DNA from: Escherichia coli
Lineage (GTDB): Bacteria > Pseudomonadota > Gammaproteobacteria > Enterobacterales > Enterobacteriaceae
Assembly: GCF_013315695.1 (NCBI RefSeq)
Contig: NZ_CP054353.1
Reading direction: 5' to 3' (one strand)
DNA length: 64,000 nt
The notes under the pieces are model-generated. The model had not been told where the DNA came from, did no database searches, and saw only the letters and a program-made list of their open reading frames with translations. Both the position numbers and the translations under genes were made by a program. Of this stretch, positions 28,550 to 35,067 are shown in pieces; position 1 is the stretch's first letter, and every line of letters begins with the position of its first letter.

Positions 28550-28735
28550 TTAACTTTGTAACGTCATAGAGTCAAAGAAAAAGGCAGCCTGTGGTTGCCT
28601 TTTGCCAATAATTCGCACACATTGCGGGTTACTGCTTTATTTTCGTTCAGTGCTGATAACGAACATCAATCTGCAAAACGAAGCGCATAGTTTAAAATGG
28701 CTATCATCAATACGCTATATCTGATGGAAAAAAAT

Positions 28736-29320
28736 ATGCCTAAACTTATTTTAGCCTCCACTTCGCCCTGGCGTCGCGCTCTTCTGGAAAAACTGCAAAT
28801 CTCTTTTGAATGTGCAGCACCAGAGGTCGACGAAACCCCACGCAGCGACGAATCACCGCGACAGTTGGTGCTTCGACTGGCACAAGAAAAAGCGCAATCT
28901 CTGGCGTCACGTTATCCGGATCATTTAATTATTGGTTCAGACCAGGTATGTGTTCTTGATGGCGAAATCACCGGTAAACCGTTAACGGAAGAAAATGCCC
29001 GTCTGCAATTACGCAAAGCCAGCGGCAATATCGTCACCTTCTATACTGGACTGGCGTTGTTTAATTCGGCGAATGGGCATCTGCAAACAGAAGTGGAGCC
29101 TTTTGACGTCCATTTCCGTCACCTGAGCGAGGCGGAGATTGATAATTACGTGCGTAAGGAGCATCCCCTGCACTGCGCGGGTAGCTTTAAGAGTGAAGGA
29201 TTTGGCATTACGCTGTTTGAGCGTTTAGAGGGGCGAGATCCTAACACGCTGGTTGGTTTACCGCTAATCGCGCTGTGTCAGATGTTACGTCGGGAAGGGA
29301 AAAACCCGCTGATGGGATAG
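28736..29320 (+). CDS. yceF: Maf-like nucleotide pyrophosphatase YceF
   Basis: ORF trimmed to ATG 28736 ([22 protein letters not shown]...), 194 aa. Confidence 0.9.
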
Positions 29321-29431: not shown

Positions 29432-30391
29432 TTAGCGCGCGTTACGCAGCTTTTGCAAACAACGCTTCAAACCTTCATCCATCGGCGCTTCGATACGCAT
29501 CACCTCTCCGGTCCCCGGATGGGTAAATTTCAACGCTGCGGCGTGCAGGAACAGACGATTTAATCCCGTGCCGGCTTCAGTGAGCTGTCTGTCAAATTCA
29601 CGGTCACCGTAGCGATCGTCAAAGGCAATCGGATGACCCGCATACTGTGTATGCACACGGATCTGATGAGTACGCCCTGTTACCGGGCTACAACGCACCA
29701 GGGTGGCAAATGCATAGCGTTCTTCCACTTTAAAGCGTGTTTCCGACGGTTTGCCTTCCTGACTGACACGCACGATACGTTCGCCGCTTTGCAGAATATT
29801 TTTCAATAACGGCGCTTGAACGCTCTTCACATGCGACTGCCACTGACCGCGCACCAGCGCCAGGTAATCTTTTTGCATCCCTTTTTCACGTAATTGCTCA
29901 TGCAGAGAACGCAACGCCGAGCGTTTTTTCGCTACCAGCAACACACCTGAAGTGTCCCGGTCGAGACGATGAACCAGTTCAAGGAACCGCGCTTCCGGGC
30001 GCAACGCCCGCAAACCTTCGATAACGCCGAAGCTTAAACCACTGCCGCCATGTACCGCCGTACCGGAAGGTTTATTCAGCACCAGGATATGGTCATCTTC
30101 ATATAAGATGACGTCCGCCAGCGCTGCCACCTTTTGCAGATGTGGCGAAACCGCCTCTTCTTCCCGTTCAGCAACGCGAACCGGTGGGATGCGTACCTCA
30201 TCACCCGCTTCGAGTTTATATTCAGGCTTAATACGTTTTTTGTTCACCCGCACTTCGCCTTTACGCAAAATACGGTAAATCATACTTTTTGGTACACCTT
30301 TCAATTGGGTACGCAAAAAGTTATCGATACGTTGCCCCGCTTCGTCAGCGGTGATAGCAACAATTTTTACGGATGGAGTCTCTGTTTTCAT
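29432..30391 (-). CDS. rluC: 23S rRNA pseudouridine synthase RluC
   Basis: 319-aa ORF MKTETPSVKIVAITADEAGQRIDNFLRTQL...; S4 domain plus RluA-type catalytic core. Confidence 0.95.
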   Translation of the reverse strand: MKTETPSVKIVAITADEAGQRIDNFLRTQLKGVPKSMIYRILRKGEVRVNKKRIKPEYKLEAGDEVRIPPVRVAEREEEAVSPHLQKVAALADVILYEDDHILVLNKPSGTAVHGGSGLSFGVIEGLRALRPEARFLELVHRLDRDTSGVLLVAKKRSALRSLHEQLREKGMQKDYLALVRGQWQSHVKSVQAPLLKNILQSGERIVRVSQEGKPSETRFKVEERYAFATLVRCSPVTGRTHQIRVHTQYAGHPIAFDDRYGDREFDRQLTEAGTGLNRLFLHAAALKFTHPGTGEVMRIEAPMDEGLKRCLQKLRNAR

Positions 30392-30963
30392 GGTGGGCGA
30401 TTCTAATTAGCCAACAGGATTCGCGCCACTCATTTTTCTATGCTTATATTTAGTTTTGCACCTTATTACTTCACTACGTGATCACTTTATTGATGGTTAT
30501 TAAACCAATCACCAGCAAGAAGTGAAAAAACTGTGAGTAAGCAGGTGATAAATGGTAAAAGTCATCTTGCTATAACAAGGCTTGCAGTGGAATAATGAGG
30601 CCGTTTCCGTGTCCATCCTTGTTAAAACAAGAAATTTTACGGAATAACCCATTTTGCCCGACCGATCATCCACGCAGCAATGGCGTAAGACGTATTGATC
30701 TTTCAGGCAGTTAGCGGGCTGCGGGTTGCAGTCCTTACCGGTAGATGGAAATATTTCTGGAGAGTAATACCCAGTCTGTTTCTTTGATAATTGCGCTGTT
30801 TTTCCGCATGAAAAACGGGCAACCGACACTCTGCGCCTCTTTGAGCTGACGATAACCGTGAGGTTGGCGACGCGACTAGACACGAGGCCATCGGTTCACA
30901 CCCGGAAAGGCGTTACTTTGCCCGCAGCTTAGTCGTCAATGTAAGAATAATGAGTAAGTTACG
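30392..30963 (+). promoter_or_regulatory. rne promoter region and long structured 5' leader (RNase E autoregulation)
   Basis: 572-bp non-coding spacer upstream of the rne ATG at 30964; function from established knowledge of rne autoregulation. Confidence 0.6.
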
Positions 30964-33900
30964 ATGAAAAGAATGTTAATCAACGCAACTCAGCAGGAAG
31001 AGTTGCGCGTTGCCCTTGTAGATGGGCAGCGTCTGTATGACCTGGATATCGAAAGTCCAGGGCACGAGCAGAAAAAGGCAAACATCTACAAAGGTAAAAT
31101 CACCCGCATTGAACCGAGTCTGGAAGCTGCTTTTGTTGATTATGGCGCTGAACGTCACGGTTTCCTCCCACTAAAAGAAATTGCCCGCGAATATTTCCCT
31201 GCTAACTACAGTGCTCATGGTCGTCCCAACATTAAAGATGTGTTGCGTGAAGGTCAGGAAGTCATTGTTCAGATCGATAAAGAAGAGCGCGGCAACAAAG
31301 GCGCGGCATTAACCACCTTTATCAGTCTGGCGGGTAGCTATCTGGTTCTGATGCCGAACAACCCGCGCGCGGGTGGCATTTCTCGTCGTATCGAAGGCGA
31401 CGACCGTACCGAATTAAAAGAAGCACTGGCAAGCCTTGAACTGCCGGAAGGCATGGGGCTTATCGTGCGCACCGCTGGCGTCGGCAAATCTGCTGAGGCG
31501 CTGCAATGGGATTTAAGCTTCCGTCTGAAACACTGGGAAGCCATCAAAAAAGCCGCTGAAAGCCGCCCGGCTCCGTTCCTGATTCATCAGGAGAGCAACG
31601 TAATCGTTCGCGCATTCCGCGATTACTTACGTCAGGACATCGGCGAAATCCTTATCGATAACCCGAAAGTGCTCGAACTGGCACGCCAGCATATCGCTGC
31701 ATTAGGTCGCCCGGATTTCAGCAGCAAAATCAAACTGTACACCGGCGAGATCCCGCTGTTCAGCCACTACCAGATCGAGTCACAGATTGAGTCCGCCTTC
31801 CAGCGTGAAGTTCGTCTGCCATCCGGTGGTTCCATTGTTATCGACAGCACCGAAGCGTTAACCGCCATCGACATCAACTCCGCACGCGCGACCCGCGGCG
31901 GCGATATCGAAGAAACCGCGTTTAACACCAACCTCGAAGCTGCCGATGAGATTGCTCGTCAGCTGCGCCTGCGTGACCTCGGCGGCCTGATTGTTATCGA
32001 CTTCATCGACATGACGCCAGTACGCCACCAGCGTGCGGTAGAAAATCGTCTGCGTGAAGCGGTGCGTCAGGACCGTGCGCGTATTCAAATCAGCCATATT
32101 TCTCGCTTTGGCCTGCTGGAAATGTCCCGTCAGCGTCTGAGCCCATCACTGGGTGAATCCAGCCATCACGTCTGCCCGCGCTGCTCCGGTACCGGTACCG
32201 TGCGTGACAACGAATCGTTGTCGCTCTCTATTCTGCGTCTGATCGAAGAAGAAGCGCTGAAAGAGAACACTCAGGAAGTTCACGCCATTGTTCCTGTGCC
32301 AATCGCGTCTTACCTGCTGAATGAAAAACGTTCTGCAGTGAATGCGATTGAAACTCGTCAGGACGGCGTGCGCTGTGTGATTGTGCCAAACGATCAGATG
32401 GAAACCCCGCACTACCATGTGCTGCGCGTGCGTAAAGGGGAAGAAACTCCAACCTTAAGCTACATGCTGCCGAAGCTGCATGAAGAAGCGATGGCGCTGC
32501 CGTCTGAAGAAGAGTTCGCTGAACGTAAGCGTCCGGAACAACCTGCGCTGGCAACCTTTGCCATGCCGGATGTGCCGCCAGCTCCAACCCCAGCTGAACC
32601 TGCCGCGCCTGTTGTAGCCCCAGCACCTAAAGCTGCAACGGCAACACCAGCATCTCCTGCACAACCAGGGTTGTTGAGCCGCTTCTTCGGCGCACTGAAA
32701 GCGCTGTTCAGCGGTGGTGAAGAAACCAAACCGGCCGAGCAACCAGCACCGAAAGCAGAAGCGAAACCGGAACGTCAACAGGATCGTCGCAAGCCTCGTC
32801 AGAACAACCGCCGTGACCGTAATGAGCGCCGCGACTCCCGTAGTGAACGTACAGAAGGCAGCGATAATCGCGAAGAAAACCGTCGTAATCGTCGCCAGGC
32901 ACAGCAGCAGACTGTCGAGACGCGTGAGAGCCGTCAGCAGGCTGAGGTAACGGAAAAAGCGCGTACCAGCGACGAGCAGCAAGCGCCGCGTCGTGAACGT
33001 AGCCGCCGCCGTAACGATGATAAACGTCAGGCGCAACAAGAAGCGAAGGCGCTGAATGTTGAAGAGCAATCTGTTCAGGAAACCGAACAGGAAGAACGTG
33101 TACGTCCGGTTCAGCCGCGTCGTAAACAGCGTCAGCTCAATCAGAAAGTGCGTTACGAGCAAAGCGTAGCCGAAGAAGCGGTAGTCGCACCGGTGGTTGA
33201 AGAAACTGTCGCTGGCGAACCAATTGTTCAGGAAGCGCCAGCTCCACGCACAGAACTGGTGAAAGTCCCGCTGCCAGTCGTAGCGCAAGCTGCACCAGAA
33301 CAGCAAGAAGAGAACAATGCCGATAACCGTGACAACGGTGGCATGCCGCGTCGTTCTCGCCGCTCGCCTCGTCACCTGCGCGTGAGTGGTCAGCGTCGTC
33401 GTCGCTATCGTGACGAGCGTTATCCAACCCAATCGCCAATGCCGTTGACCGTAGCGTGCGCGTCTCCGGAACTGGCCTCTGGCAAAGTCTGGATCCGCTA
33501 TCCGATTGTACGTCCACAAGATGTACAGGTTGAAGAGCAGCGCGAACAGGAAGAAGTACAAGTGCAGCCGATGGTGACTGAGGTCCCTGTCGCCGCCGCT
33601 GTCGAACCGGTTGTTAGCGCACCGGTTGTTGAAGAAGTGGCTGAAGTCGTAGAAGCCCCCGTTCACGTTGCCGAACCGCAACCGGAAGTGGTTGAAACGA
33701 CGCATCCTGAAGTAATTGCCGCCGCGGTAACTGAACAGCCGCAGGTGATTACCGAGTCTGATGTTGCCGTAGCCCAGGAAGTTGCAGAACACGCAGAACC
33801 GGTAGTTGAACCGCAGGAAGAGACGGCAGATATTGAAGAAGTTGCCGAAACTGCTGAGGTTGTGGTTGCTGAACCTGAAGTTGTTGCTCAACCTGCCGCG

Positions 33901-34149
33901 CCAGTCGTCGCTGAAGTCGCAGCAGAAGTTGAAACGGTAGCCGCGGTTGAACCAGAGATCACCGTTGAGCATAACCACGCTACCGCGCCAATGACGCGCG
34001 CTCCGGCACCGGAATATGTTCCGGAGGCACCGCGTCACAGTGACTGGCAGCGCCCTACTTTTGCCTTCGAAGGCAAAGGTGCCGCAGGTGGTCATACGGC
34101 AACGCATCATGCCTCTGCCGCTCCTGCGCGTCCGCAACCTGTTGAGTAA
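30964..34149 (+). CDS. rne: Ribonuclease E
   Basis: 1061-aa [33 protein letters not shown]...; catalytic N-terminal half and Arg-rich/acidic low-complexity C-terminal scaffold. Confidence 0.98.
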
Positions 34150-34222: not shown

Positions 34223-34251
34223 TGACATTAGCGTTACATGTGCTGTATAAT
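34223..34251 (+). promoter_or_regulatory. Putative sigma-70 promoter of the toxin-antitoxin operon with overlapping inverted repeats
   Basis: TGACAT (34223..34228), 17-bp spacer, TATAAT (34246..34251); palindromes TAATGaCATTA, ACATGT and ATAATTAT in and around it. Confidence 0.45.
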
Positions 34252-34282
34252 TATCATCCACGCAAAGCCGAAGGATATATTT

Positions 34283-35067
<785 letters not shown>

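Follow-up and report, generated by a model that had tools for sequence, protein, structure and literature searches.

The rne promoter and rne5 leader RNA in the rluC–rne spacer of Escherichia coli, and the doubtful protein-coding status of the antisense frame yceQ

Our study examined a 64,000-nucleotide stretch of an Escherichia coli genome (contig NZ_CP054353.1 of assembly GCF_013315695.1), referred to here as the window, in which rluC (29432..30391, minus strand) and rne (30964..34149, plus strand) are called as coding sequences. The divergent spacer between them, bounded by the ends of the two flanking coding sequences, occupies 30392..30963 and measures 572 bp, and the coordinates given for it in the initial annotation proved exact (rluC boundary at 30391, rne start at 30964). 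The spacer is 100 % identical to that of E. coli FDAARGOS_497 and 99.3 % identical to that of K-12, and it was found in 5,425 of the 5,426 complete E. coli genomes. Four positions of the spacer differ between K-12 and the window, and as all four lie upstream of the rne promoter P1, both P1 and the leader are identical to the sequence that has been studied experimentally. Across 110 species of Enterobacterales the spacer was mostly 552–612 bp long, with longer versions seen only where repeats had been inserted, and a length of approximately 550–610 bp is maintained in Escherichia, Yersinia, Serratia, Pantoea, Dickeya and Photorhabdus.

Several other features were seen in the window outside the spacer. 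Directly downstream of rne, a gene for a TacA-like antitoxin (PF08681, 92 bits; 34238..34576, plus strand) is overlapped at its end by a GNAT acetyltransferase gene (34558..35067, plus strand), and the pair at 34238..35067 is a candidate TacAT-type toxin–antitoxin module. The SraB sRNA (RF00077, 208.9 bits) was located at 28574..28742 on the minus strand, in the yceD–yceF spacer, where it overlaps the start of the listed yceF ORF. The PyrC leader (RF02372; 53453..53502, plus strand) and the ES036/CssrF sRNA (RF02751; 62633..62675, plus strand) both scored above their Rfam gathering thresholds.

The end of the spacer adjacent to rluC forms a conserved block (30392..30451), with identity of 0.73–0.93 within the Enterobacteriaceae and 0.50–0.74 in other families. 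This block probably holds the promoter and 5′ region of rluC and/or the upstream rne promoters p2/p3. A Kushner-lab primer for amplifying 'rne with its promoters' maps to 29824..29839, within rluC, and bounds the rne promoter region only loosely; our literature search on rluC/rne promoters returned nothing beyond Renilla luciferase. Among complete E. coli genomes, two natural spacers bearing an insertion sequence were identified. Strain 164 carries an IS1 with a 9-bp duplication of 30442–30450, and the clinical O121 strain 201805972 carries an ISEc11 at 30526–30528, in the last codons of a long ORF that runs antisense to rne. Both sites are upstream of P1, which is consistent with P1 and the leader being the indispensable part of the spacer. 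Two further observations concern the rluC side, namely that the IS1 of strain 164 interrupts its well-conserved block, and that an RpoS genomic-SELEX peak falls near that block, at approximately 30483 by coordinate conversion.

A promoter scan of 30300..31050 revealed a sole sigma-70-like site, P1, on the plus strand at 30567..30596, comprising a −35 element TTGCTA, an 18-bp spacer and an extended −10 element TGgAATAAT. Transcription from P1 probably starts at G30603, judging from the sequence; the 5′ UTR would then be 361 nt long, as published for rne P1, and the Rfam match to the leader has its position 1 at the same nucleotide. Approximately 16 bp upstream of the −35 element, on the minus strand at 30532..30551 and inside the antisense ORF, lies a DnaA double box, TTATCACCtGCTTACTCACA. 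The match to TTATCACCtGCTTACTCACA is unique, with 0 expected by chance, and one base of the box differs from K-12 (30543, A in the window and G in K-12). The box corresponds to the DnaA site '(yceQ) rne' reported by ChIP-seq (PMC11317965); DnaA binding is the published K-12 result, and the box in this strain is matched to it by sequence. It is a putative second non-coding function overlapping the antisense ORF.

The leader itself occupies 30603..30963 on the plus strand (361 nt), is 100 % identical to that of K-12 and represents the cis-acting element of RNase E autoregulation. Rfam model rne5 (RF00040) matched 30603..30939 on the plus strand over all of its positions (1–333 of 333), with a score of 260.1 bits (E 6e-82) against a gathering threshold of 180 bits. 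The match lies on the same strand as rne, downstream of P1, and stops 24 nt before the rne ATG at 30964. The initial annotation had expected the spacer to house the rne promoter and a structured 5′ UTR, and this was borne out by P1, the full 361-nt leader and the RF00040 match. Three structured domains were delineated, followed by a single-stranded 3′ end. The hp1 stem-loop (30605..30644, plus strand) stands at the 5′ end of the leader and was placed by the Rfam consensus structure and the minimum free energy fold. The hp2 stem-loop (30655..30709, plus strand) comprises helices 1–3 of our covariation analysis, shows compensatory changes at four pairs and is the most conserved portion of the leader. 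The multi-branched hp3 domain (30716..30929, plus strand) is closed by an 11-bp long-range helix that pairs 30716–30726 with 30919–30929; helices 4–9 of this domain were 93.6–100 % paired, with compensatory changes in helices 4, 5, 7, 8 and 9. Three pairs of the closing helix are predominantly G·U, which marks it as a structure of the plus strand. The single-stranded 3′ end (30930..30963, plus strand) contains the rne ribosome-binding region, GAGTAAGTTACG followed by ATG; its conservation is 0.98–1.00 in the Enterobacteriaceae and its columns were invariant in an alignment of 51 species.

Compared with the published RF00040 element (Jain & Belasco 1995; Diwa et al. 2000; Schuck et al. 2009), the leader in the window has the same full-length match directly upstream of rne, the same strand, the same hp1/hp2/hp3 architecture with conserved, compensated hp2 and hp3 domains, and a sequence identical to the K-12 leader that was studied. 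We found no difference between the two, and the leader is simply the reference element as it occurs in a further E. coli strain. According to papers citing Diwa 2000 and Schuck 2009, hp2 is the sensor to which RNase E binds, and secondary sources on K-12 describe this binding as promoting cleavage and decay of the rne mRNA. By virtue of its identity with K-12, the leader in this strain would be expected to mediate the same feedback. The rne 5′ UTR of Caulobacter crescentus (a 'class II' leader) is likewise long and structured and likewise mediates RNase E autoregulation, but it differs in the spacing of its single-stranded regions and in its cleavage sites, and it is missed by Rfam RF00040.

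Selection on the leader was examined by comparison across genomes. Species-representative genomes were scanned with a 20-nt hp2 motif, yielding 120 loci. At 118 of these, rne and/or rluC stands on the side expected; the remaining two matches (Henriciella and Alteromonadaceae) have neither gene nearby and were discarded as chance hits. As the loci were ascertained through this motif, the invariance of 30673–30692 is partly by construction, but the block at 30712–30731 is equally conserved and is independent of the ascertainment. In the alignment of leaders from 51 Enterobacterales species, RNAalifold predicted 50 pairs, corresponding to hp2 and the hp3 domain. In total, 97.3 % of the cells in these pairs were paired, compared to 27–40 % when the 3′ partners were slid by one to three columns, and compensatory changes on both sides were seen at 20 of the 50 pairs, compared to 6–9 when slid. 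In 500 shuffles, the observed figure was never attained on any of five measures. The folding energy of single sequences showed the sense leader to be no better than its shuffles (z = −0.66). Single-sequence folding is therefore uninformative here, and structural support comes from covariation and the Rfam model.

The strand on which this selection acts bears upon one rival explanation of the locus, in which a non-coding antisense RNA from the minus strand regulates rne, through pairing with the leader or through transcriptional interference (an 'excludon'), and the ORF is incidental. ExcludonFinder lists rne–yceQ as an overlapping divergent pair on the basis of RNA-seq coverage, and the antisense strand of the leader folds somewhat better than its own shuffles (z = −1.91). 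However, the excludon call hinges on an overlap between the annotated yceQ and the long rne UTR, and the promoter scan found no promoter-like site on the minus strand of 30300..31050. The pairs also point to the other strand: across the 51 species, G·U cells numbered 216 and A·C cells 15, and pairing was 97.3 % on the sense strand but 89.4 % when these pairs were read on the antisense strand. The excess of G·U over A·C therefore indicates selection on the structure of the rne-sense RNA. Moreover, the polarity effects reported from CRISPRi and transposon experiments are fully explained by transcription of rne, and we consider a regulatory antisense RNA very unlikely.

The leader has also received insertions in several relatives. 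Inserts of 89–251 bp were found within the rne 5′ UTR of several genera, clustered at the equivalent of approximately 30742–30748 in the first arm of hp3, with a second cluster near hp1/ss1 (equivalent to approximately 30607–30650). The carriers were Citrobacter youngae, C. braakii, Pseudocitrobacter, Klebsiella oxytoca, Enterobacter sp. 10-1 and Kluyvera. Six of the inserts scored 18–26 against a 44-nt sequence that we take, from the ERIC1R/ERIC2 primers, to be the ERIC core, whereas shuffles scored at most 13–16. The ERIC repeat family is reportedly processed by RNase E, and ERIC-like inserts within the rne leader might change how RNase E is autoregulated in the species that carry them.

The initial annotation had drawn attention to a minus-strand ORF within the spacer, possibly the doubtful K-12 ORF yceQ. 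This ORF (30509..30883, minus strand) is present in the ORF list, encodes 124 aa from a GTG start and is judged here to be non-coding. Its identity with yceQ was corroborated, as the ORF shares its locus, frame and stop with b1085 and is 98 % identical to DUF2655/YceQ database entries. The K-12 genome record NC_000913.3 annotates yceQ/b1085, a 'DUF2655 domain-containing protein YceQ', at 1144502..1144822, which converts to 30829..30509 of the window; this 106-aa form (30509..30829, minus strand) begins at an internal GTG, whereas the window ORF begins 18 codons earlier, at the first GTG. The two differ at one amino acid (L for P), a consequence of the base that differs in the DnaA box. In PGAP-annotated RefSeq genomes the spacer is devoid of features. 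The proposal that the ORF lies inside the regulatory leader holds for most of its length, with 281 of its 375 nt being leader, but not for 30509..30602; this remaining quarter or so lies upstream of the P1 start and contains P1, the DnaA boxes and a further 23 nt past them.

An antisense frame of this length is uncommon by chance. When the spacer was shuffled 5000 times with dinucleotides preserved, 37 shuffles (0.7 %) gave a minus-strand ORF of 124 aa or longer, and 69 (1.4 %) gave one on either strand. Such an ORF is unusual for one spacer, but we would expect it a few times across the non-coding DNA of a genome, and its length alone is therefore no evidence of a gene. The GTG annotated in K-12 (30829) is preceded at a spacing of 6 nt by AGAGG, a plausible Shine–Dalgarno sequence, whereas such a sequence is absent from the first GTG (30883). 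The AGAGG is the complement of CCUCU in hp3, and its presence probably explains the original annotation of yceQ.

These two properties, the rarity of the length and the AGAGG, are among those that favour a second rival explanation, in which yceQ is a real but young protein gene restricted to Escherichia and expressed from a minus-strand transcript, perhaps only under special conditions. It is also favoured by the continued listing of yceQ as a CDS in NC_000913.3 and by the frame being open in all five Escherichia sequences sampled. When the E. coli frame was projected onto 41 other aligned spacers, only four retained it, all of them from Escherichia (K-12, E. albertii and two divergent lineages with 97 % identity), whereas all 37 sequences from other genera contained in-frame stops and/or indels of 1–2 nt. 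Conservation of the frame among orthologous loci, as would mark a YceQ protein family, was not observed. Within Escherichia, the nucleotide identity of 97–99 % imposed by the RNA and promoter leaves too few mutations to break the frame. In both Citrobacter and Salmonella, codon 101 is a stop (AAG to TAA; 30583..30581), within the P1 spacer, and this common stop is the reason why databases contain 'DUF2655' entries of 82 aa. The longest antisense ORF varied from 23 to 146 aa among 110 species despite the conserved spacer length.

The substitution pattern in the ORF also differs from that of a protein-coding gene. By codon position, its substitutions numbered 127/88/103 in Citrobacter and Salmonella and 485/338/421 in other Enterobacteriaceae, with no excess at the third position even within Escherichia; comparison genes from the same genomes, represented by the first 375 nt of each, gave counts of, for example, 2/1/35 for rne and 2/1/48 for rluC. 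Using the Nei–Gojobori method, the antisense ORF had a dN/dS of 0.47–1.16 with a dS of 0.01–0.12, compared to a dN/dS of 0.00–0.02 with a dS of 0.13–1.2 for rne and rluC. Purifying selection on a YceQ protein was not detected. The 'synonymous' sites of the ORF are as constrained as its 'non-synonymous' sites and its dS is strongly depressed, and this equal constraint is what selection on the nucleotides, rather than on a protein, would leave. The comparison suggested by the initial annotation, between dN/dS of the ORF and conservation of leader structure, has a clear outcome: a dN/dS of approximately 1 without third-position bias for the ORF, and strong covariation on the rne-sense strand.

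The composition of the ORF and its database matches were also examined. Its codon-adaptation score was 0.585, compared to 0.708±0.047 for long genes in the window, its GC content at codon position 1 was 0.40 versus 0.59, and 8 of its 124 residues (6.5 %) are cysteine; this poor codon usage and the eight cysteines argue against a real gene, as does the lack of a promoter-like site for yceQ on the minus strand. The product had no match in Pfam-A or in NCBIfam release 20, even at E values up to 1, and an overlapping 62-aa ORF (30703..30891) had no Pfam match. Among 5.8 billion proteins there were 32 matches, of 68–156 aa and covering 26–98 % of the query, and all those with a named source were from the Enterobacteriaceae. 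The matches share a 28-residue core, which is the antisense translation of 30659..30742, i.e. hp2 and the base of hp3. Three frameshifted 'E. coli/Shigella' proteins were considered as natural disruptions of the ORF and rejected, as their multiple frame switches could be assembly errors.

Published experiments on yceQ bear directly on its status. The initial annotation had named ribosome footprints as a check, and published data supply it: in ribosome profiling, which covers a few growth conditions, yceQ received zero reads under each of three conditions (Price et al., 10.1101/038851). The same study reported that the ORF is disrupted in some strains and that transposon insertions in yceQ occur only in the orientation able to drive rne (Price et al., 10.1101/038851), such that insertions are viable if rne stays transcribed. 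The 'essentiality' of yceQ in the Keio and PEC collections has been attributed to loss of the rne promoter (Goodall et al., TraDIS). Likewise, the strand-specific fitness effect of CRISPRi guides against yceQ has been attributed to blocked transcription of rne through the leader, and yceQ was also concluded to be non-essential (Rousset et al.). The Salmonella orthologue is an annotated pseudogene, yet it is 'selected' in transposon screens, a status compatible with the explanation through rne. In comparable cases such as psrO ahead of pnp and rnc preceding era, an apparent essentiality or fitness effect is likewise explained by polarity on the adjacent essential gene or by loss of its promoter; psrO and rnc differ from yceQ in being real genes or sRNAs, whereas yceQ is apparently without a product.

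Taken together with a dN/dS near 1, the frame broken outside Escherichia and the sense-strand covariation, the zero ribosome reads sustain the doubt that the initial annotation had cast on the ORF as a protein gene. We put the probability that yceQ is not a functional protein gene at approximately 95 %, and most likely the ORF is neither translated nor functional as a protein. A natural ISEc11 at 30526–30528 alters the yceQ C-terminus in the clinical O121 strain, which speaks further against a young Escherichia gene, and we give that explanation only a minimal chance of being correct. Equally slight is the chance of a variant of it, in which yceQ was born de novo in Escherichia, is translated at a low level or in limited conditions, and owes its frozen sequence to constraint on the RNA of the opposite strand, not to a function of its own.

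The spacer is the control region of the essential gene rne. Transcription would initiate from the sigma-70 promoter P1 at approximately 30603, with the DnaA double box placed just upstream, and the 361-nt leader would fold into hp1, hp2 and the branched hp3 domain. In keeping with the literature, RNase E would bind hp2 and speed the decay of its own mRNA, so that RNase E synthesis would track cellular RNase E activity. The yceQ ORF is most likely a by-product, an open frame that runs antisense by chance through sequence held near-invariant by selection acting on both the RNA and the promoter DNA.

In summary, the rne promoter and autoregulatory leader with a dubious antisense yceQ are already known, and in this respect our study adds nothing new. 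The point is mainly one of annotation, as yceQ/b1085 is still a CDS in NC_000913.3 and was scored 'essential' in Keio and PEC, whereas the evidence indicates that the essential features are the rne promoter and leader. Confirmation of this keeps yceQ from being propagated as an essential gene, a drug target or a functionally uncharacterised protein. The locus also provides a clean example of how a regulatory RNA under strong nucleotide constraint can keep a long frame open on its complementary strand, and such constraint can generate apparent 'protein homologues' in databases.
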